From the NCBI GenBank assembly GCA_023957115.1, contig JAMLHN010000003.1, positions 927 through 64,926 of the forward strand: a stretch of DNA of 64,000 nucleotides, written 5' to 3'. Positions 4,198 through 63,192 of the stretch are shown one piece after another. The notes beneath the pieces are model-generated. The model did not search any database and was not told where the DNA came from. It saw nothing but the letters and a program-made list of their open reading frames with translations. This stretch comes from Thermomicrobiales bacterium. GTDB lineage: Bacteria; Chloroflexota; Chloroflexia; Thermomicrobiales; UBA6265. The translations under genes and the position numbers were made by a program. Numbering within the stretch: position 1 is the first letter of the stretch; every line of letters starts with the position of its first letter.

Positions 4198-4356
4198 TCC
4201 GGAGCGCGGAGTCCGGCGGCCGGAGAAGACCGACGGGCTCGGTTTCTCGGGCACGTTCCAGCCTGAAACAGATCAGAAAAGCAAACGGTCCGGGGATCAG
4301 CGCAATCCCGGACCGTATTGCGTTTCTACCGCCGACACTCAGTTACTCGATACTTC

Positions 4357-4450
4357 GCTGCCTGCTGCCTGCTGCCTGCTGCCTGCTGCCTGCTGCCTGC
4401 TGCCTGCTGCCTGCTGCCTGCTGCCTGCTGCCTGCTGCCTGCTGCCTGCT
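4357..4450. repeat. Perfect heptanucleotide tandem array (CTGCCTG), about 13.4 copies
   Basis: Read directly. Period 7 with no interruptions. The last unit overlaps the TAG stop (4449-4451) of the minus-strand small ORF. Confidence 0.95.
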
Positions 4451-4655
4451 ACCGGTTGTTCCAGCCGATCAGGATCAGGATGGCACAGATGAGCAGGAGC
4501 GCCAGCAGACCGATGATGATGGCCCATTGGAGCCAGGAATCGGGGTTGGACGAACCCTCCGGTTCGTCCGGCTCCTGGGTAACCGCCAGCTCGATCTCCG
4601 GATCGGTTACCGGGCGGTCGACTTCGATAATCTCGGCGGAATCCTGCTCGTTCAC
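4449..4655 (-). CDS. Hypothetical small single-pass membrane protein (68 aa)
   Basis: GTG start. Acidic N-terminus followed by one C-terminal TM segment (WLQWAIIIGLLALLLICAILILIGW). Third codon positions are G/C-rich as in neighbouring genes, but the RBS is weak and no family is recognised. Confidence 0.35.
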   Translation of the reverse strand: MNEQDSAEIIEVDRPVTDPEIELAVTQEPDEPEGSSNPDSWLQWAIIIGLLALLLICAILILIGWNNR

Positions 4656-4670
4656 GCGCGCAGTGTACCT

Positions 4671-4848
4671 GAGGACGGGGGAGTTAGGAGTTGGGATCTA
4701 GGAGTTGGGAACGAAGGTCCCGAGTTCCGGGTCCTGAGTCCTGCGAAGATCTGGACAACCGAGCGCGGTATTCGCATCGACCCTTGATCAGGAGACGGTC
4801 GTTGTTCGGGAGCTCCCGAACTCCTAAATCCCAACTCCCAACTCCTAG
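4671..4848. repeat. Composite element: inverted degenerate heptamer arms (GGAGTTR / YAACTCC) around a core of about 100 nt; copy A
   Basis: Left arm gaggacgggggagttaggagttgggatctaggagttgggaac. Right arm cccgaactcctaaatcccaactcccaactcctag. The core is homologous to 13708-13863. The right arm supplies the TAG stop of the HD-domain gene. Confidence 0.85.
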
Positions 4849-6212
4849 AACGCCCCTCCAAGCTCGGGGAAGAGGAGGGTTTCCCAGTGGGCGGCGACGG
4901 CGTCACGATGGGGAGCCGAGGCGATGATGCGGACGAGACGGCGATGCTCTTCGAAGCGCTTGAAATCGTCGTCCCCCAGCCCGACGACCTCGCGCCACGG
5001 CATCAGGCGGCGGAATCCGACCGGTTGCCGTTCGAACCAGACCCAGACGTCGGTGCGCCACCGTTCCGGTTTGGGGATATCGATCAGGATCGTCTCATCG
5101 GGCAGCGGGGTTCCGACGATTGCTTCGAGTCTCCGGGTCATCCCGAGCTCGACCGCTCGCCGGCGCTCCGGTGTATGGAACAGATCGCCGATTCGCAGGT
5201 AGAGGTCGGATGCCTGGGCGCTGATCTCGACGGCGCGTTTGTGGATCTCGCGCCGGTGGAGCGCATTGGCCAGCCGCCGGGTTGTATCTGGCATGCGAAA
5301 CCTGAGCATGAGCGCCAGCAGCGAGGCATCGTCGTTGTTGGTCAGCTCATTCGCTTCGATCGCACCGGCCAGCATGGCGTCCTGGACCGCGCGCAGCAGC
5401 ATCGCCATACAAGCGCGATTGGTGTGATGCCAATAGATGTTGTCGAACATTTCCTGGCGGGCGTTGATGAGCGAATGCAGGGGGCTGACCCCTTTGGCGT
5501 CGACCGCGATACGCGGCTGCGCCTCCGCGGGTGGCGTGGCGAAAATGAGCGAGGCGATCAAGCGGGCCGTGTCGACGCCGCCATACGGCACGCTACACGC
5601 GCGCGCGTCGCGGGGCAGGTAGTCGAGCTTGTCGACATCCAGCGGTCCGGACAGGATGCCGCGAAGCAGCGCATCGGCCGGATGGAGCTGATATCCGGCG
5701 GGATCGATGATCGTCGCGACCCGTTCCGGATCGACACCCCAGGCGTCGCGCAAGATGGGGGCAATCTCCGGGCCTAGCACGATCTGCCGTCCGACCCGTT
5801 CGTGCGAGACGACCGGGTCGCCAAGCTCTTCGATGGCATGGGAAAAGGGATAGTGACCGATATCGTGCAAGAGGGCCGCGGCGCAGAGCGTGCGGGCGTC
5901 TTCGTCGGTAATCCAGACTGCGTCCGCGCGCGCGCGCAAGTGCTCGACCGCTTGCCGCGCCAGATGAAAGACACCGATCGAGTGCTCGAACCGGGTATGG
6001 CGGGCGCCCGGCCAGACGCGGGAGACGAACCCCAGCTGTTGAATGCGTTCCAGTCGCAGAAACGCCTGCGAATCGATCAACCGGAGCTCGGCATCGGCCA
6101 GGGGAACAATGTCGTAGAGCGTGTCTCGCAGCATGGTGACAACCGGAAAGCCGGTGCCAACCGTTTTCCCCCGATGCGATTCTGGATGTGTGGTCACCTG
6201 TGTCTCGGTCAT
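4845..6212 (-). CDS. HD-domain phosphohydrolase (dGTPase/SAMHD1-like dNTP triphosphohydrolase family)
   Basis: I trimmed the ORF to the ATG at 6212 (MTETQVTT...). Contains HTRFEHSIGVFHLARQ and LLHDIGHYPFSHAIEEL, the H...HD...D metal-binding signature of this family. Confidence 0.8.
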   Translation of the reverse strand: MTETQVTTHPESHRGKTVGTGFPVVTMLRDTLYDIVPLADAELRLIDSQAFLRLERIQQLGFVSRVWPGARHTRFEHSIGVFHLARQAVEHLRARADAVWITDEDARTLCAAALLHDIGHYPFSHAIEELGDPVVSHERVGRQIVLGPEIAPILRDAWGVDPERVATIIDPAGYQLHPADALLRGILSGPLDVDKLDYLPRDARACSVPYGGVDTARLIASLIFATPPAEAQPRIAVDAKGVSPLHSLINARQEMFDNIYWHHTNRACMAMLLRAVQDAMLAGAIEANELTNNDDASLLALMLRFRMPDTTRRLANALHRREIHKRAVEISAQASDLYLRIGDLFHTPERRRAVELGMTRRLEAIVGTPLPDETILIDIPKPERWRTDVWVWFERQPVGFRRLMPWREVVGLGDDDFKRFEEHRRLVRIIASAPHRDAVAAHWETLLFPELGGAF

Positions 6213-6274
6213 GATGAAAGAATACGCGTCATGGTGTCCGCGTTTCCGCGGCAGAGATCGGTGAGGGACAACCC

Positions 6275-7498
6275 GTGTCGCGGGCAGCCAATTCGGACGA
6301 CGCGTCGAACGTGGCACGAGTCATACGGCAACCTCCTGCTCAGCCCTTTATCTCGTTCCGCTTTGCCCTCGCGCTCGTCACCTTCACCCTCTGGTCGACC
6401 GACGTCATGTCCCCGGCGCTGCCGGCCATCCAAGACGACTTCTTGCTTTCGGCCAAGGCGGTCGGACTGACCGTCTCCTTCTTCTTCCTGGGACGGTTGC
6501 TTGGCAATTTCCCGGCTGCCCGGTTTCTCGATACCGCCGGATCCCCGCGGGTGGCATCGATCGGGGGCTTGGTCATGGTGTTGGGTTCCGTGACCAACGC
6601 AGTCGCCCCCAATATCGAGGTGCTCTATGCCGGACGCGCCTTGCAGGGGGTGGGCATTGCCTTGCTGGTGAACGCTGGTTTGCGCTCGATCCTATCCGCG
6701 CGGCCGGGCCGGGGTGTAGCAATGACGCTGTATGGCATCGCATCCACGATCGGCAGCGTGATCGGCTTGCAGAGCAGTGGGCTGCTGACCGGAAGCTACG
6801 GTTGGCGATCGATTTTCGTCCTTTCGGCGATGCTCGGTGTCGTGCTGACGATTTTGCCAATTGTCAGCACCAGCGTCGCCCGCCGCTCATTGCGGCCGGT
6901 GGAGCATACGTCTACCGTAGCTGGGGTGATCGTCCCCTTGCGGACGTATCTGGCGCCCCTGGCGATCAACTTTCTGGTCTTCTGTAACTACTCGATCTGG
7001 GTCATCGTGCCGCTCTATGCGCAGCGGCAGTTCGATGCCAGTCCCACCGCCACGGCCAATCTTCTCTTGATCATTACGATTACCCACCTGGCCGCAGCGG
7101 TGCCGGTAAGCCGGGCAATCGGCCGGTTTGGGCCATCCCGGGTGCTGGTAAGCTCGTTGCTCATCGCCGCGGCCGGAAGCGCGGGGATCCTGCTCGCGAA
7201 TTCGGTCTGGTTGCTTGGGTTGCCGCTCGCCTTGTATGGCGCTGGTATGGTGGGGGCGGTCAATTCCGGGGGTGATATTGTGTTGCATCGTGGGGGAGCC
7301 GGCTCCCGGGCGGTGGGATCCCTCCGGCAGACCAGCGATCTCGGCCGGGTTATCGGGCCAATCGTGGCAGGTGCGATTGCCGATGCGTTGAGCTACAGCG
7401 CTCCGTTCGTTGTCTTTCCATTCCTGATGCTGGTCGTCGTCGCCGGGATCGTCGTACCGGGCGGACTTGGACCCCGGACCGTAACGGAGAATGCCTGA
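6275..7498 (+). CDS. MFS transporter
   Basis: 407 aa with about 12 predicted TM segments and an MFS-like loop motif (GRLLGNFPAARFLD). The stop overlaps the next start (ATGA-type junction at 7496-7500). Confidence 0.8.
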   Translation: MSRAANSDDASNVARVIRQPPAQPFISFRFALALVTFTLWSTDVMSPALPAIQDDFLLSAKAVGLTVSFFFLGRLLGNFPAARFLDTAGSPRVASIGGLVMVLGSVTNAVAPNIEVLYAGRALQGVGIALLVNAGLRSILSARPGRGVAMTLYGIASTIGSVIGLQSSGLLTGSYGWRSIFVLSAMLGVVLTILPIVSTSVARRSLRPVEHTSTVAGVIVPLRTYLAPLAINFLVFCNYSIWVIVPLYAQRQFDASPTATANLLLIITITHLAAAVPVSRAIGRFGPSRVLVSSLLIAAAGSAGILLANSVWLLGLPLALYGAGMVGAVNSGGDIVLHRGGAGSRAVGSLRQTSDLGRVIGPIVAGAIADALSYSAPFVVFPFLMLVVVAGIVVPGGLGPRTVTENA

Positions 7499-11565: not shown

Positions 11566-11840
11566 TAGAGAGGACCTGGGACGGGGATCGATACGGAACC
11601 CGGGTAATACTGTCGCGGATATGAACATGGCAACGGTGCGCGCGTCACCATGTGCCAAGGTCGCCATCAATGGGGGCGCTACGGGCCGGCCATTCGAACC
11701 GGCAACTGGTTCGGATCGCGCCATAGGCTATCCCGCTCCCACTCGGGCGTGTTTGAACACTCGACGACGTGGCTCCGCCCCCGCTGGACCGGCCCGGAAT
11801 CCGTCCGTCCACGCTCCGGCATCAGCCGCCCGGATTGTCG

Positions 11841-11885
11841 CAGGACCCAGGGCTCAGGACGCAGGACCGTTTCAACCACGCCCTA
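11841..11885 (-). repeat. 45-nt dispersed motif directly abutting a stop codon (copy 1)
   Basis: caggacccagggctcaggacgcaggaccgtttcaaccacgcccta matches 50903-50947 at 41/45 positions. It contains CAGGRCN heptamers. The terminal cta is the TAG stop of the 11883..12332 gene. Confidence 0.85.
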
Positions 11886-12426: not shown

Positions 12427-13695
12427 CTACTTTGGCGTGTCGGATCGGATGGGATCGGGTGGAGTGCCGGTCAGCACCGAACGGAGGGCGCCGGTCAGCA
12501 CCAGACCGATGGGCCCGGACAGCCCGACGATGAGTCCGGTGAGCGCGATCGTACGTGGCGGTCCGAGTGCGTCGGTGATCCAGCCGACGATCGAAAATGC
12601 GACCAATGCCGAGGCGGCAATCACCCCACCCCAGATGGCGTAGACCCGGCCGCGGAGCTCGTCCGCGGTCCATTCCGCCATATAGGCCTGCATCGAGATG
12701 ACCGCCCAGGCGTCGGCGACGCCGAAGATGAACACCAAGATATAGAGCGTCGCTGGCTGGGGAACCAGCACCACTGGCACCAGGAGCAGCGGTCCGAGAT
12801 AGCCGAGGAAGAGCATGTTCGCCCGGCTGATTCGGCGTTCGAGCCGACTGGCGCTCAATGCCCCTATGACCGCTCCAGAGCTCATGGCAACGGCCGAGAG
12901 TCCGAAGAGGAAATCGGCGCGGGTTCCAAGATCGAGCGTCTCCTCGAAGTAGACGACCATGGTGATCGAGAGGACGCCGAAGATGAGCGACCAGAGCCCT
13001 TCGGTCAGGCAGACTCCGCGCAGGATGGGGGTGGTCCAGATCGTTCGGAACCCAACCCGTATCTCTGCGGCCGCATTCCGCGCGATCGACCCAAATGCGT
13101 GACTGGACGGACGAACGCGCTCTGGGAGAACGAGCCGCCAGTTCCAGAAGATGGCAATGCCGTAGCAGACCGCCTGGAGCCAGAACGGCGGCCGCGGGCC
13201 GACCAATCCAACAATTGCAGCGCCAAGCGCGGGACCGACGATACGTGTGATCGAACCCGTCACCTGGACCAGGGAGAGAGATGGAACCAACGTCTCCTTG
13301 GTCACGATCGTTGGGAGCACCGCCAGACTGGCCGGCATGGCGAAGGTTTGTCCCAGTCCGAGCAGGACGGCGATCGCGCCGAGCTGGGCCGGACTCTCGA
13401 CAAAGGGAATGAAGGCGACCGCTATGCCGCGCAGGGTGTTCGCCGCAAGCATGATCGCGCGGCGGTCGAGATTGTCGGCCACCACACCGGCAAACGGCGA
13501 CAGAAGCGCACGCGGCGCCATTTGTAGCACGAAAATGACGCTCATCAAGGCCGCCGAGCTCGTCATGTCATAGACGAGCAACGGAAGCGCCACCTGGCCG
13601 ATGGCTTCGCCCAACCCGGAAAACGTCGTTCCGGCCCAGAGATTTCTGAACTGAGTGTTACTCAGGACGTGGCGATAGCTTCGCGGTTCGGCCAT
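12427..13695 (-). CDS. MFS transporter (EntS/MFS_3-like)
   Basis: 422 aa. FRNLWAGTTFSGLGEAIGQVALPLLVYDMT...VVADNLDRRAIML is typical of this MFS subfamily. About 12 TM segments. Confidence 0.85.
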   Translation of the reverse strand: MAEPRSYRHVLSNTQFRNLWAGTTFSGLGEAIGQVALPLLVYDMTSSAALMSVIFVLQMAPRALLSPFAGVVADNLDRRAIMLAANTLRGIAVAFIPFVESPAQLGAIAVLLGLGQTFAMPASLAVLPTIVTKETLVPSLSLVQVTGSITRIVGPALGAAIVGLVGPRPPFWLQAVCYGIAIFWNWRLVLPERVRPSSHAFGSIARNAAAEIRVGFRTIWTTPILRGVCLTEGLWSLIFGVLSITMVVYFEETLDLGTRADFLFGLSAVAMSSGAVIGALSASRLERRISRANMLFLGYLGPLLLVPVVLVPQPATLYILVFIFGVADAWAVISMQAYMAEWTADELRGRVYAIWGGVIAASALVAFSIVGWITDALGPPRTIALTGLIVGLSGPIGLVLTGALRSVLTGTPPDPIRSDTPK

Positions 13696-13707
13696 GGGTC
13701 TCCGTGT

Positions 13708-13863
13708 GGGGAGTTCGGAGTTAGGATTTGGGAGTTAGGAACGAATGACTTGTGTCTTGGGTCCTGAGCCCTGAGAAGATCCGAACAACTGAATTCAACG
13801 TTCAGATCGACCTTTGAACCTCAGAAACGTGTTGTCCGGAAACATCCCAGCTCCTAATTCCTC
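13708..13863. repeat. Composite element with inverted heptamer arms and conserved core; copy B
   Basis: Left arm ggggagttcggagttaggatttgggagttaggaac. Right arm atcccagctcctaattcctc. The core (gggtcctgagccctgagaagatccgaacaac...atcgaccttt) aligns with the core of 4671-4848. Confidence 0.85.
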
Positions 13864-13924
13864 AATGGAAACGAGGCAGGCTCGGGAGAGCCTGCCTCGA
13901 AGAATTGCTGCGATCGAACGTCGA

Positions 13925-22419: not shown

Positions 22420-22538
22420 GTCTTCTGCCGACTGGCGCCGGCTTCGACTTCCTCCTCACTCGGCATCGAGACCCGATGGAATGGGACCTCTCATCCTACT
22501 CCCCATTGGGTCTCGATGCCTTGGGCTACGATCAGTTT

Positions 22539-22638
22539 GGGAGCTGGGAGCTGGGAGCTGGGAGCTGGGAGCTGGGAGCTGGGAGCTGGGAGCTGGGAGC
22601 TGGGAGCTGGGAGCTGGGCTTTCCCAACTCCCAACTCC
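22539..22638. repeat. Perfect (GGGAGCT)x11 array followed by an inverted (CCCAACT)x2 arm
   Basis: 22539-22615 is an uninterrupted period-7 array. cccaactcccaactcc (22623-22638) is the near-complement of the array. It lies between convergent genes and abuts the TAG stop of the SDR gene at 22640. Confidence 0.95.
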
Positions 22639-22639
22639 T

Positions 22640-23377
22640 CTAATACGTGGCGCGGCCGCCGGAGAGGTCGAACACGGCGCCGGTGCTGAACGAGAGATCG
22701 TCCGAGGACAGGAACGCCGCCAGCGCGGCGACTTCCTCTGGCTGTCCGACCCGGCCCATGGGGATCCTGCTGGTCATGTAGCTGATGTGCTCTTCGCTGA
22801 CCTGCGCCAGGATCTCGGTCGCAATCACGGCCGGCGTGATGGCATTGACCAGCACGCCCTTGGTGGCAACTTCCTTGGCGATGGCCTTGGTCAGACCGAT
22901 GACGCCCGATTTTGCCGCCGAGTAGGGCACCGCATTCGGGTTTCCTTCCTTCCCGGCGATCGAGGCGATATTGACGATGCGTCCATAGCCCTGATCGATC
23001 ATGCCGGTGATGAATGTCTGGCATCCGAGGAAAACGCCGGTCAGGTCGATATCGATGACCTGCTTCCACTCCTCGAAGGAGAGCTCCCAGGTTGGGGCGG
23101 AGCGCCCGGCAATACCCGCGTTGTTGACCAGAATGTCGAGGCCGCCGAAGGCCGCGTCGACTTCTTTCTTCGCCGCCTGCCACGATTCGGGCGAGGTGAC
23201 GTCAAGCTGCACGGCAATAGCGCCGCTGCCGATCCGTGCGGCGGTTTCCTTGCCTTTGTCGATGTCGAGATCGGCAATGACCACCTTCGCGCCGTTGCTT
23301 CCCAGCCGGGTGGCAATAGCCGCGCCGATACCACGAGCGCCACCGGTGACGAGGGCGCGCTTTCCTTCGAATTGCAT
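22640..23377 (-). CDS. SDR-family oxidoreductase (FabG-like)
   Basis: Start at ATG 23377 ([22 protein letters not shown]). TGxxxGxG, NNAG and YxxxK (YSAAK) motifs are present. Confidence 0.85.
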
Positions 23378-23459
23378 CGTTTCCTTACTCCATTCGAGCT
23401 CGGGATGACCCCGCAAAATCGTCTGCCGCGATCATGCCACAGCCGGCGAACCTGGACAC

Positions 23460-37543: not shown

Positions 37544-37620
37544 TGTCCGGTGTCCGGTGTCCGGTGTCCGGTGTCCGGTGTCCGGTGTCCGGTGTCCGGT
37601 GTCCGGTGTCCGGTGTCCGG
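37544..37620. repeat. Perfect (TGTCCGG)x11 heptanucleotide array
   Basis: Read directly: 77 bp, period 7, uninterrupted. Confidence 0.95.
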
Positions 37621-37696
37621 AGCGATCGGCGTGCCAAGGCCCGCGCCGAAAATGTATCGAAGGGTCCCATCCCGGGACTCTTCGCTTTACGTTTCT

Positions 37697-37744
37697 CAGG
37701 ACTCAGGACTCAGGACTCAGGACTCAGGACTCAGGACTCAGGAC
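37697..37744. repeat. Perfect (CAGGACT) array, about 7 copies, abutting the fabF stop codon
   Basis: Read directly: 48 bp, period 7. The next three bases (37745-37747, cta) are the TAG stop of fabF. Confidence 0.95.
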
Positions 37745-43852: not shown

Positions 43853-43930
43853 TTGTTTCGATACCCTCCTTGGGCGTTATTGGTTCGATTTGGCCCCGTG
43901 AAGGCGCTTTACGCTCTTCTCAGGACACAG

Positions 43931-44017
43931 GACACAGGACACAGGACACAGGACACAGGACACAGGACACAGGACACAGGACACAGGACACAGGACACAG
44001 GACACAGGACACAGGAC
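43931..44017. repeat. Perfect (CAGGACA) array, about 12.4 copies
   Basis: Read directly: 87 bp, period 7. Lies between the ymdB start and the stop of the CUT1 permease gene. Confidence 0.95.
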
Positions 44018-44028
44018 ACGTCGTTCGC

Positions 44029-58864: not shown

Positions 58865-59052
58865 CGCAGGTAGCAGGTAGCAGTTGGTTGTCAGCAGTCA
58901 GTCATCGGCAGTTGGGAGCAGATTGCCATGGCACCAACCGTCGTCCCGGGCGAAACCGAGGGATCTCGTCGCCACAGCGAGCCGGACCAACTGCGAACCA
59001 TGCGCTCAGACAGCCGACAGCTAACTGCTCATGAAAACTGACTGCCGACTGC
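58865..59052. repeat. Composite element with degenerate GCAGNNN-type heptamer arms and an internal copy of the 40-nt motif
   Basis: Left arm gcaggtagcaggtagcagttggttgtcagcagtcagtcatcggcagttgggagcag. Right arm cagccgacagctaactgctcatgaaaactgactgccgactgctcg (inverse-like). The core carries gtcgtcccgggcgaaaccgagggatctcgtcgccacagcg. Confidence 0.7.
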
Positions 59053-59055
59053 TCG

Positions 59056-59598
59056 CTAAAGCTGACCCACGATCTCGTCGCGCTTGCGGCAGAGCTCTTC
59101 GACCGTGATGTGCCCCGATCGGAACAGATCCGCGACCGCCCAGAGCCGTGCCGACGCTTCCGAAAGCGCGGTCAGCTTCTTGCGGCGATTGCCTGCCCGC
59201 CGAACCGTCATCTCTCCAGCAATCGAAAGCGCGGTGATCGCATCGAAAGCGACATCCTTGCTGACCGGCGGCGCTTCATACGCCAGCGGGAGCTGCTGAT
59301 AGCCGTTGACATCGGCGTCGATCGCTTCCATGAGCCGGCGGACCGACGCGCTCAGGTGCGATTCAAAGGCGTTCAATGCCGCCTTGTGATGCGCGGCTGG
59401 CAACTGCTTCGACTCCAGAAACGCGGCGGGCGACTCCGGCTGTCCCTTCCAATCGGTGGAAAGGGCGATGTCGTCCAGAAATGCCTTGTCCGAGGGACAT
59501 CCCGCCCACTGGGCGAGCAATACGTCTTCAACTTTCGGTGGTGCAAGCCGGCCGAGCGCGCGAATCGATCGCGACCGTGTCCGGGGCGCCTCATCCAT
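59056..59598 (-). CDS. Hypothetical protein (180 aa, predicted helical)
   Basis: I trimmed the ORF to ATG 59598 (MDEAPRTRSRS...), with AAGGAAG upstream. No family recognised. Confidence 0.45.
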   Translation of the reverse strand: MDEAPRTRSRSIRALGRLAPPKVEDVLLAQWAGCPSDKAFLDDIALSTDWKGQPESPAAFLESKQLPAAHHKAALNAFESHLSASVRRLMEAIDADVNGYQQLPLAYEAPPVSKDVAFDAITALSIAGEMTVRRAGNRRKKLTALSEASARLWAVADLFRSGHITVEELCRKRDEIVGQL

Positions 59599-59778
59599 CT
59601 TCTCTTCCTTCGAGCGGGGGTAGAGGGATGGTAGCCGAAAGCGCTCGTACGTACAAGGATCGGAAACCGCGTTATGTTCTGAGGATTCCCAAATTTCCGT
59701 ATCTTCTTGACAGAACCTCACGAGCGCCGCTGATTTTTCCGCAACGACGGGAGGAGCGAGGAGCTGGGATCTGGGAGC

Positions 59779-60790
59779 TAGAGCAAAGACCTAAAGGGTT
59801 GCCAATGTGGCACGATCGTGCCATGCTGTGGCCATGCCCCGTGCCTATTCGGTCGACCTCCGTGAACGGGTGATGGCAGCCGTGGCGGACGGCTGCTCCA
59901 TTGCTGAGGCGGCCCACCGGTTTTCCGTCAGGGTCGATGCGATCTATGACTGGCGGCGCCGACAGCAGACCACCGGGTCGCTGGCGCCGACGACCCACCA
60001 CTGCGGACGCCCTCGTCGCGTGAGCCCGGAGATGGATCGGGCACTGCAGGCGCAGATCGACGCGGAGCCCGATGCTACCCTGACCGAATTGCAGGCGTGG
60101 CTGGCCACGGAGCATGGGCTCGTCGTCGGTCGTGGCACGGTCATTCGGGCCGTGGCGCGACTGGATCGTCCCCGAAAAGAGTCTGATCGCCACCGAGCGC
60201 GATCCTGAGCAGCGGGCAGCGTGGCACCAGGACCAGGCGCGGTTGGTGGCCGACGATCTGGTCTTTCTGGACGAAACCAGTACCCAGATCACCCTGACCC
60301 GCCGCCATGGCCGAGCCCTACCGTGGGCACCGGCTGGTCGCGGCGGTTCCCCGCAACCACGGACGCAACGTCACCTGCCTGGCCGCGTTGCGCACAACCG
60401 GAGTGGGACCATCCCTGGTCTTCGAAGGTGCGCTCAATGGACCGGTCTTTGCCCAGTGGGTGCGCACGCAGTTGGTACCGACCTTGCGACCGGGTCAGAT
60501 CGTGATCCTGGACAACCTGAATGTGCATAAGGCTCCCGAGGCGCGGCGGGCCATTGAGGCCGCTGGGTGTCAGCTGCGCTTCCTGCCAGCCTATTCGCCG
60601 GACTTCAATCCGATCGAACTGGTCTTCAGCCGGCTCAAGACCCACCTGCGCACCATCGCCGCACGCACGGTCGATGCCTTGATGACGGCAATCGGGGATG
60701 GGCTCAATGCCGTCACCGCCACCGATGCCCGCAACTGCGTGCGCATGCTGGGTATTCCTAACCAGGGCGACCTTTTCGGTCTGCGCTCTA
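59779..60790 (+). mobile_element. IS630-family insertion sequence (about 1.0 kb) with TA target-site duplication in a CTAG site
   Basis: Imperfect terminal inverted repeats: ctagagcaaagacctaaagggttgcc at the left, versus the reverse complement of the right end, ctagagcgcagaccgaaaaggtcgcc. TA at 59779-59780 and 60789-60790. It encodes an IS630-type HTH plus DDE transposase. Confidence 0.8.
59834..60788 (+). pseudogene. IS630 transposase split over three frames (two +1 shifts at C-runs)
   Basis: MPRAYSVDLRERVMAAVADGCSIAEAAHRF...ARLDRP, shift near 60170; EKSLIATERDPEQRAAW...VFLDETSTQITLTRRHGRA, shift near 60317; YRGHRLVAAVPRNHGRNVTCLAAL...ILDNLNVHK...LPAYSPDFNPIELVFSRLK. No in-frame stop occurs before the right IS end. 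Confidence 0.75.
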
Positions 60791-60822
60791 GGAATTGGGT
60801 GTCGGGAGTTGGCCGGGCCTAC

Positions 60823-62914: not shown

Positions 62915-62920
62915 CAATTT

Positions 62921-63011
62921 GGGAGCTGGGAGCTGGGAGCTGGGAGCTGGGAGCTGGGAGCTGGGAGCTGGGAGCTGGGAGCTGGGAGCTGGGAGCTGGG
63001 AGCTGGGAGCT
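62921..63011. repeat. Perfect (GGGAGCT)x13 heptanucleotide array
   Basis: Read directly: 91 bp starting 7 nt after the stop of the HTH gene. Same unit as the 22539 array. Confidence 0.95.
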
Positions 63012-63165
63012 GGGCGAACACCCGGCGGCCCGAGCGATGCGGAGGGCCCCTCACTCCTCGCCATTTGGGAGAAACCCTGTAGGTATACAGGGGTAATGAG
63101 CTCCTGACTTCAGTCTGGAGATAACTCTCCCCTTCGCTGCGCTTCCGTCGGGACGGCGGCTCGAT

Positions 63166-63192
63166 CCCCAACTCCTATATCCCAACTCCTCA
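63166..63192. repeat. Inverted heptamer arm (ccccaactcctatatcccaactcctc) pairing with the 62921 array
   Basis: Near-complement of GGGAGYT units. Together with the array it brackets a core of about 150 nt containing the palindrome ccctgtaggtatacaggg and a divergent copy of the 40-nt motif (63127-63165). Confidence 0.75.

Follow-up and report, generated by a model that had tools for sequence, protein, structure and literature searches.

The DNA considered here is a 64,000-nt stretch of contig JAMLHN010000003.1 (assembly GCA_023957115.1, positions 927 to 64,926 of the forward strand) from an uncultured bacterium of the order Thermomicrobiales, with a G+C content of 62%; this whole stretch is referred to below as the window. 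It contains two hairpin-forming, non-coding intergenic elements of 160–175 bp, A and B, and the genes flanking each of them all lie on the minus strand (Table 1). A is located between a gene encoding an HD-domain protein and a small gene for a 68-amino-acid membrane protein, and B between genes encoding a periplasmic-binding protein and an MFS transporter. A first-pass annotation, produced from the sequence alone, had described both as heptamer arms inverted around a conserved core and had suggested roles in transcription termination, mRNA 3′ stabilization, or non-autonomous mobility.

The stop codon of the HD-domain gene, TAG (CTA at 4845-4847 of the window), overlaps the last heptamer of an A arm, so that copy A does supply the stop codon of a minus-strand gene, as proposed, and the hairpin is anchored at that codon. 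The accompanying proposal, that each copy lies directly downstream of such a gene, holds for A, whereas B is located 62 nt past the stop of the periplasmic-binding-protein gene and beyond a separate, terminator-like hairpin. The 68-amino-acid gene follows the HD-domain gene in every relative seen, where it is called as a gene and conserved; its product has an acidic N-terminal half and a single C-terminal transmembrane helix (..WLQWAIIIGLLALLLICAILILIGWNNR), and has no match in Pfam. No ribosome-binding site can be seen ahead of this gene, which makes translational coupling probable. At the other locus, B ends 13–14 nt ahead of the MFS start codon (ATG at 13695), leaving room only for a GGAG ribosome-binding site. 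Promoter and terminator scans identified no terminator-like site within positions 4200-5000, around A, and no sigma-70-like promoter or T-run terminator inside either element. A role as a canonical intrinsic terminator was rejected because the stem is not followed by a T-run; the sole terminator-like site near B is the separate hairpin at 13872-13899.

Architecture and homology of A and B

The stems of A and B are short inverted arrays of a heptamer, (R)GGAGTT, that resembles a Shine-Dalgarno (SD) sequence, with the G-rich array 5′ and its complement 3′. The arm sequences at both copies bear out the annotated plan of inverted arms around a conserved core. In the window the motif GGAGTTRGGA, with at most one mismatch, has 43 matches against 5.7 expected, a count reached in none of 100 shuffles. 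The loop region of ~105 nt consists of two YCCTGAG units followed by a unique core of ~70 nt. What had been taken for a single conserved block is therefore composite: its left part (GGG TCCTGAG YCCTGMG) is built of YCCTGAG heptamers, the same unit, in reverse complement, as in an array at 37695-37744, while the 71 nt that follow are heptamer-free and homologous.

Since the left part is made of heptamers, the remaining 71 nt were tested alone. They align without gaps at 45 of 71 positions (z = 7.8), with a score of 19 against a shuffle mean of -16.4 and a maximum of 2 among 2000 dinucleotide shuffles; the annotated homology of the cores is thus above chance. Over 157 bp, the two elements are 72% identical (blastn, E = 6.7e-17). 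The arms carry the same signal, as the unit order GGAG, GGAG, GGAT, GGAG is common to both arms of both copies, with the GGAT variant third from the outside in 4/4 arms and GGAACGA terminating both left arms. Such a shared order is not expected from independent slippage, and it shows that the whole composite, arms included, was copied as one piece to a second locus. On the same comparison, both elements descend from a single ancestral intergenic repeat, non-coding and hairpin-forming, and have since diverged.

Folding, which the first-pass annotation had recommended checking, was predicted for both elements. The two arms of A, each of 30 nt and 90% complementary, are separated by 106 nt, and the minimum free energy of the element is -86 kcal/mol on the plus strand (z = -4.5) and -90.7 kcal/mol on the minus strand (z = -6.9). 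For B the corresponding values are -58 kcal/mol (z = -3.2) and -48.8 kcal/mol (z = -1.8). Within the core, an ACAAC/GTTGT stem plus its flanks is the only folded part common to A and B, and the small inner hairpins lie in different registers. A conserved RNA fold in the core was rejected for want of evidence; with just two independent sequences, covariation there cannot be judged.

Table 1. Positions of elements A and B, of other heptamer arrays and hairpins, and of associated features in the window.
Feature	Position	Strand	Description
Element A, whole hairpin	4676-4848		Between the HD-domain gene stop (minus strand) and the GTG of the 68-amino-acid membrane-protein gene
A, G-rich (left) arm	4680-4714	+	GGAGTTA GGAGTTG GGATCTA GGAGTTG GGAACGA
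A, heptamer-derived part of the core	4729-4745	+	GGG TCCTGAG TCCTGCG
A, heptamer-free core	4742-4812	+	GAAGATC..ACAAC..ATCGACC..GTTGT..CGG; gapless alignment to 13772-13842
A, C-rich (right) arm	4818-4845	+	Reverse complement, outside in: GGAGTTG GGAGTTG GGATTTA GGAGTTC
Element B, whole hairpin	13706-13866		Fills the gap from the terminator-like hairpin to the MFS gene ATG
B, G-rich (left) arm	13710-13744	+	GGAGTTC GGAGTTA GGATTTG GGAGTTA GGAACGA
B, heptamer-free core	13772-13842	+	Gapless alignment to the A core
B, C-rich (right) arm	13841-13861	+	Reverse complement: GGAATTA GGAGCTG GGATGTT; two more units in Logan contig L002
HD-domain gene	4845-6317	minus	Upstream of A; stop TAG at 4845-4847
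Conserved 68-amino-acid gene	4449-4655	minus	C-terminal transmembrane helix; GTG 24 nt after the A arm
Terminator-like GC-rich hairpin	13872-13899	minus	Followed by TTTCCATTGA; after the periplasmic-binding-protein gene, not part of B
Coreless hairpin, GGAGTTR-type arm family	22538-22640		(TGGGAGC)x11.6, directly followed by CCCAACTCCCAACTCC; abuts the TAG of an SDR gene (22640-23416, minus)
Hairpin with two different arm heptamers	37544-37744		(TGTCCGG)x11 and (CTCAGGA)x7, 74 nt apart; abuts the FabF TAG
Hairpin, degenerate GCAGTYR / YRACTGC arms	58866-59050		Begins at the TAG of an open reading frame (59056-59721, minus)
Hairpin, GGAGTTR-type arm family	62920-63190		(TGGGAGC)x13.6, unrelated ~150-nt spacer, CCCCAACTCCTATATCCCAACTCC (CCCCAACTCC..CCCAACTCC)
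Solo arrays	4357-4450; 11839-11867; 43921-44019		
Solo seven-unit GGAGYTR array	59753-60811	+	GGAGCGA GGAGCTG GGATCTG GGAGCTA GGAATTG GGTGTCG GGAGTTG; split by an IS630-family insertion

Slippage, empty sites and further copies

The same locus is carried by a metagenome-assembled genome (MAG), GCA_020432215.1, and by a Logan contig. The Logan contig (L002), which comes from a different sample, matches the window over ~260 bp except for 14 bp, corresponding to two extra heptamers, in the right arm of B. The B arm thus changes length in whole heptamers by slippage, and the variability that the first-pass annotation had anticipated is borne out by an independent assembly. The symmetric order of units is retained in the window, so that L002 appears to be the allele that expanded. 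Independent alleles of the other arrays were sought by exact-protein look-ups for the SDR, FabF, and HTH genes, which returned no record.

An empty site, another check that had been recommended, was found for A in a relative, L057. There, the TAG of the HD-domain gene is followed by 23 bp and then by the GTG of the small gene; in the window, A lies in between. The C-terminus of the HD-domain protein has the same length and stop position in both, and TACACTGCGC, which immediately precedes the small gene's GTG, is conserved. Compared with the L057 site, ~11 bp are replaced at A, rather than a clean site being duplicated. As the genes are only 23 bp apart in L057, A is most simply an insertion into, or an ~11-bp replacement within, a tightly spaced gene pair. 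Judged from this alignment, A was probably inserted into an operon, in which the two genes were probably already coupled. Neither element occurs at the corresponding, syntenic positions of five related contigs (L057-L061; MFS proteins 75–77% identical, HD-domain proteins roughly 85%); closer relatives of the HD-domain gene are on record, at 91% and 88% identity. Those five contigs, ~59 kb in all, hold a single perfect heptamer array of at least three units, (TTGCCTC)x3. With only one such array in that much syntenic DNA, the arrays of the window look like a lineage-specific burst.

Two contigs end close to the sites of A and B. A 3400-bp JGI contig (3300041965) that carries the closest HD homologue (P0190, 91% identity) stops 69 bp past the stop codon, and a MAG contig, L001, begins 313 bp ahead of the MFS gene, so that it reaches about 160 bp past B. 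Contig breaks near A/B-type elements would fit repeats that interrupt short-read assembly.

Further copies, for which a covariance or hidden Markov model (HMM) search had been recommended, were not found in the window, the collected loci, or the databases scanned. Core HMMs run with nhmmer over 1.3 Mb of collected loci gave no third core copy. Within the window, searches with these HMMs and with R1, a covariance model of A, B, and L002 used with its filters switched off, recovered only A, B, and other hairpins that matched through their arms. The GTDB, JGI, and viral scans used exact patterns, and the source genome lies outside the GTDB-representative and JGI collections. The core pattern GAAGATCNNNACAACN{12,20}ATCGACC gave 54 matches among GTDB representative genomes, all of them due to chance and without homology beyond the pattern; GGTCCTGAGNCCTGNGAAGAT gave four chance matches in JGI metagenomes; and the core pattern gave one match in viral contigs that was not significant against either core HMM. 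A covariance search of the whole window against Rfam 15 produced no match at the gathering score. A permissive Rfam search of three sub-regions gave only weak matches, the best being E = 0.12 for A (plant microRNA hairpin models) and 0.72 for B, and a match at E = 0.061 fell on the separate hairpin 13872-13899, not on B. An integron attC site was also considered and rejected: GTTRGGA and TCCYAAC fit only 6/7 positions of the RYYYAAC/GTTRRRY consensus, and the flanking genes are syntenic housekeeping genes rather than cassettes.

Resemblance to miniature inverted-repeat transposable elements (MITEs), or to repetitive extragenic palindromic (REP) sequences and bacterial interspersed mosaic elements (BIMEs), was part of the original description. 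The general likeness is reasonable, but no target-site duplication and no related autonomous element were found. A classical MITE, mobilized in trans by a transposase from another part of the genome, would account for small, non-coding elements with inverted ends that occur as two copies at unrelated loci and are missing from the orthologous site in a relative, and an IS630-family element is present in the window. Against this, neither copy is flanked by a direct repeat, conservation between the two does not extend to their outermost ends, and no transposase with matching ends was found in the window; a Pfam scan of ~29 window open reading frames (ORFs) likewise revealed no Y1 transposase. The IS630-family element was rejected as a parent, since its ends are unrelated to the arms and it used a heptamer array as its own CTAG/TA target. 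We consider a classical MITE very unlikely. The insertion sequence (IS) itself occupies 59781-60788 and has HTH_Tnp_IS630 and DDE_3 domains (Pfam), its transposase being spread over two or more frames. The two 30-nt ends (GAGCAAAGACCTAAAGGG...) agree at 20/30 positions, and a TA duplication flanks the element; it sits at CTAG within the seven-unit GGAGYTR array, and its excision restores an in-phase array.

Tandem-array hairpins in the window and in phages

A and B are two of six hairpins with heptamer-array arms in the window, where four solo arrays also occur. GGAGTTR-type arms are found at five loci and the core at two. The hairpin at 62920-63190 begins 5 nt past the TGA of a gene encoding an 86-amino-acid HTH protein, and the degenerate hairpin at 58866-59050 was detected solely by the covariance-model search (15.3 bits, E ~0.009). 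In the solo array split by the IS630-family element, the first units follow the order seen in the left arms of A and B. Six arrays of 7–14 units (4357-4450, 22538-22618, 37544-37620, 37695-37744, 43921-44019, and 62920-63014) are perfect, with 100% identical repeats; five unit sequences are represented among them, every one of the six is intergenic, and most lie against a stop codon. At 62920-63014 and 22538-22618, open reading frames are called across the (TGGGAGC)n arrays by ORF finders, giving spurious repeat "proteins," which is an annotation hazard. Hairpin A and those at 22538, 37544, and 58866 start at a TAG stop codon (4/4 adjacent stops, p about 0.02). TAG accounts for 18/47 stops in a heuristic gene set and also occurs within the unit itself when this is read as TAGGAGT, a phase that puts a stop in every frame; given that TAG is common and can be supplied by the unit, its association with the arrays is only suggestive.

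The abundance of arrays raises the question of whether any mobility is needed. Arrays could be made in place, by local slippage and by quasi-palindrome template switching between arms, and the likeness of A and B could reflect a single ectopic duplication or gene conversion. The window does contain many perfect arrays of unrelated heptamers (GCTGCCT x13, TGTCCGG x11, CAGGACA x14, and TGGGAGC x12–14), one arm type occurs around three different spacers, and arm length is polymorphic; the lack of a target duplication, a transposase, and further core copies would also be accounted for. On the other hand, the unit-by-unit order of the four arms and the collinear 105-nt core require at least one event that copied a complete composite to an unrelated locus, and two viral loci each carry three composites having conserved spacers. 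We consider origin in place without mobility unlikely.

These viral loci came from a scan of IMG/VR contigs for GGAGTTRGGAGTTRGGA, which returned 81 loci. Three composites with heptamer arms and conserved spacers are present in L120 (1489-1643, 5799-5895, and 11418-11521) and three in L085 (7067-7189, 7966-8080, and 8544-8635), each of the latter preceded by a conserved A7-CTCCG-T8 motif; by the evidence of arms and spacers, they are elements of the same sort as A and B. The architecture is common among unrelated phage contigs of high GC content: inverted GGAGTTN/NAACTCC arrays occur in 20/82 viral loci (L066-L147). When opposite-strand arrays no more than 250 nt apart were counted in these 82 loci and the window, 37 inverted pairs, from 21 sources and with spacers of 8–124 nt, had the G-rich array first, and none had the C-rich array first. 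As the G-first order reads alike on either strand, this polarity is a real property of the elements.

In one phage, represented by L117 and L148 (and by L149 and L150), such hairpins fill most gaps between genes of a late operon encoding terminase, portal, protease, and capsid proteins. Between positions 5435 and 21657 of L148, 12 intergenic gaps contain one hairpin each, made of inverted tandem arrays of 7- or 8-nt units (TAGGAGT, GGAGACAR, GATTTTG, and TTGTCCG). The stem starts no more than 8 nt from the stop codon in 12/12 cases, and no more than 3 nt from its first base in 11/12; the next ATG often lies 0–20 nt past the hairpin with no SD sequence between, and several hairpins end at or inside that ATG. 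A search with the portal protein returned no taxonomy for the host. The A/B element is one member of a wider, barely described class of tandem-array-armed hairpins found in this genome and in some phages.

This arrangement invites a translational explanation, in which the element would act in cis, either joining termination at the upstream stop to initiation at the next start by coupling or shunting across the stem, or tuning the downstream gene by masking and unmasking its SD-like (GGAG) and anti-SD-like (CUCC) arrays. A runs from within a stop codon to 24 nt short of a GTG that lacks an SD sequence, where the ancestral spacing was 23 nt; B ends about 14 nt ahead of the MFS start codon; most hairpins of L148 span the distance from a stop codon to within 0–20 nt of the next ATG, often with no SD; and the 37:0 polarity always places the GGAG arm 5′ and the CUCC arm 3′. 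However, no start codon closely follows the hairpins at 22538 and 62920, and arms composed of GATTTTG, TTGTCCG, or GCAGTYR contain no SD motif; a translational device acting in cis is decidedly doubtful as an account of A and B. A broader proposal is that hairpins of this kind, always with a GGAG arm 5′ and a CUCC arm 3′, beginning at a stop codon and often reaching the next start, constitute an undescribed and widespread intercistronic device of high-GC bacteria and phages. Such a device might link termination with re-initiation on the far side of the stem, or govern how the mRNA is processed, and could renew itself by slippage and template switching, with A and B as bacterial members that are starting to spread as units. 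We regard this proposal as unlikely.

Possible function and relation to known repeats

The reading we favor, with a confidence slightly better than even, regards A and B as copies of a non-autonomous repeat of the REP/BIME or MITE type whose hairpin has microsatellites for arms and which would function at the mRNA level, as a stem at the 3′ end or between cistrons. The composite would have landed in, or replaced, intergenic DNA, at A between genes that are 23 bp apart in the relative, after which each arm would change length by replication slippage in whole heptamers, as seen for B. Slippage together with quasi-palindrome template switching could build the arms and keep them equal; as A and B occupy separate loci, a copy-and-paste step is needed in addition, and spread may have followed a REP/REPIN-like or a recombination/template-switch route rather than classical cut-and-paste transposition. 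Because the flanking genes are all on the minus strand, the element is most likely transcribed within their mRNA, where it would form a duplex of at least 30 paired positions (-50 to -90 kcal/mol) beginning at the stop codon of the upstream gene. By analogy with REP/BIME sequences and phage T7, the duplex could serve as a barrier to 3′ exonucleases, as an RNase III-type processing site, or as both, and could set the relative expression of the flanking cistrons; cleavage or an exonuclease block would uncouple their stabilities. A REP sequence within ~15 nt of a stop codon can stall terminating ribosomes, as Liang, Rudd and Deutscher reportedly found in 2015 for hairpins less than ~15 nt away, and stalling of this kind could apply to A. 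The hairpin also joins its two ends, leaving stop and next start about 24 nt apart through space at A, compared with 23 nt in the relative; that they stay close may explain why the element is tolerated inside an operon.

Several observations weigh against this interpretation, in addition to the lack of target-site duplications, of a shared outermost terminus, and of a matching transposase. The core is known in two copies only, so that a "dispersed family" rests on n = 2. The ~105-nt core has not acquired any indel despite ~30% substitutions, a hint of constraint that would be superfluous for a purely selfish element. The proposed role in RNA is deduced from anatomy and analogy. Lastly, B takes up the entire stretch in which a promoter and 5′ untranslated region of the MFS gene would be expected, with no sigma-70-like promoter there, and might have a regulatory role for that gene.

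Work on bacterial microsatellites has mostly concerned phase variation, and dispersed hairpin repeats such as REP sequences and MITEs are handled separately; the A/B element joins both. Since its stems are microsatellites, stem length and stability can change at the rates of slippage, and should such stems determine how long an mRNA lasts, how it is processed, or how its cistrons are coupled in translation, they would provide a fast-evolving means of tuning operon expression. The strict polarity (37:0), the anchoring at stop codons, and the near-complete filling of gaps in a phage late operon suggest a rule and not an accident. Such hairpins may also break short-read assemblies, which would matter for metagenome quality.

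Among known systems, the intercistronic hairpins of phage T7 offer a functional analogy only. T7 mRNAs carry RNase III processing hairpins between genes, and these long stem-loops, like those described here, would be possible cleavage sites and 3′ stabilizers; they consist of unique sequences with internal loops, in contrast to the tandem arrays that form the arms of A and B. REP, BIME, and REPIN sequences of enterobacteria and pseudomonads are extragenic and hairpin-forming, often follow stop codons or lie inside operons, occur as inverted doublets with variable (mosaic) linkers, generate no target duplication, and stabilize upstream mRNA. A and B are likewise extragenic, hairpin-forming, and free of target duplications. 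REPs number tens to hundreds per genome, together with a RAYT (Y1 transposase) gene that has REPs on its flanks. They are single imperfect palindromes of 20–40 nt with a conserved 5′ GT(A/G)G (GTAG-type) head recognized by RAYT transposases, whereas the arms of A and B comprise 3–5 tandem GGAGTTR units without such a head. Bacterial MITEs (Correia/NEMIS, Nezha, and Chunjie, among others) are non-coding elements of 100–400 bp with terminal inverted repeats that fold as RNA and reside between co-transcribed genes; A and B share their small size, lack of coding capacity, and absence from some orthologous sites. The terminal repeats of MITEs are fixed and match those of a parent IS, and MITEs produce target-site duplications; A and B have no such duplications, share no ends with the only IS of the window, and have length-variable microsatellites in place of terminal repeats.

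Heptamer arrays as such have been reported from other phyla. The short tandemly repeated repetitive (STRR) sequences of cyanobacteria and the TAACTGA arrays of Beggiatoaceae and cyanobacteria are intergenic 7-nt tandem repeats that expanded in lineage-specific bursts; the arrays often end beside start codons, contain stops in all frames, and have been proposed to act in translation (MacGregor, 2015; PMC4679880). These arrays are almost all direct, with one inverted case in 170 sets (MacGregor, 2015), whereas inverted pairing is the defining feature here. The closest likeness in arrangement is found in Xanthomonas, where each genome has 183–186 GGGAATC/GGGANTN heptamer arrays, about 90% of them intergenic and at a mean of 28 nt from the upstream ORF, with convergent inverted pairs in 70–75 cases (Rehm et al., 2015, PLoS One; PMC4692102). 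As in those pairs, A and B have at least two tandem G-rich heptamers per strand, of a similar GGGA-N-T-N-like form (GGGAGTT / AGGAGTT), arranged as convergent inverted pairs able to form stem-loops; they are intergenic, close to the 3′ end of the upstream ORF, and variable in unit number.

The Xanthomonas arrays, which differ in length between species, were interpreted as quadruplex-forming, and GGGAATC folds into quadruplexes in vitro (Rehm et al., 2015). A DNA-level element of this sort, whether a G-quadruplex, a cruciform, or a protein-binding array affecting transcription or replication, might be suspected here as well, since the (TGGGAGC)n arrays of the window are canonical G3N4 quadruplex motifs. 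The quadruplex interpretation fits the arms of A and B poorly, as these have just 2–3 runs of at least three Gs, and many arm types of the class are not G-rich; we consider a DNA-level role highly improbable. The present elements also differ from the Xanthomonas pairs in occurring in another phylum (Chloroflexota, Thermomicrobiales) and in having a long conserved spacer and the unit-by-unit order of the arms in common at two loci, the composite having been copied whole; a strictly G-first polarity, an origin of the stem at stop codons, and an occurrence in phage operons are described here and not in that report (Rehm et al., 2015). Literature searches for the arm sequences and for the architecture yielded no description of either, nor of composites copied whole, a rule of polarity, anchoring at stop codons, or the hairpins of the phage operon. 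Overall, the A/B element is a variant of inverted heptamer simple sequence repeat pairs and REP/BIME-like hairpins, rather than a member of a known family.

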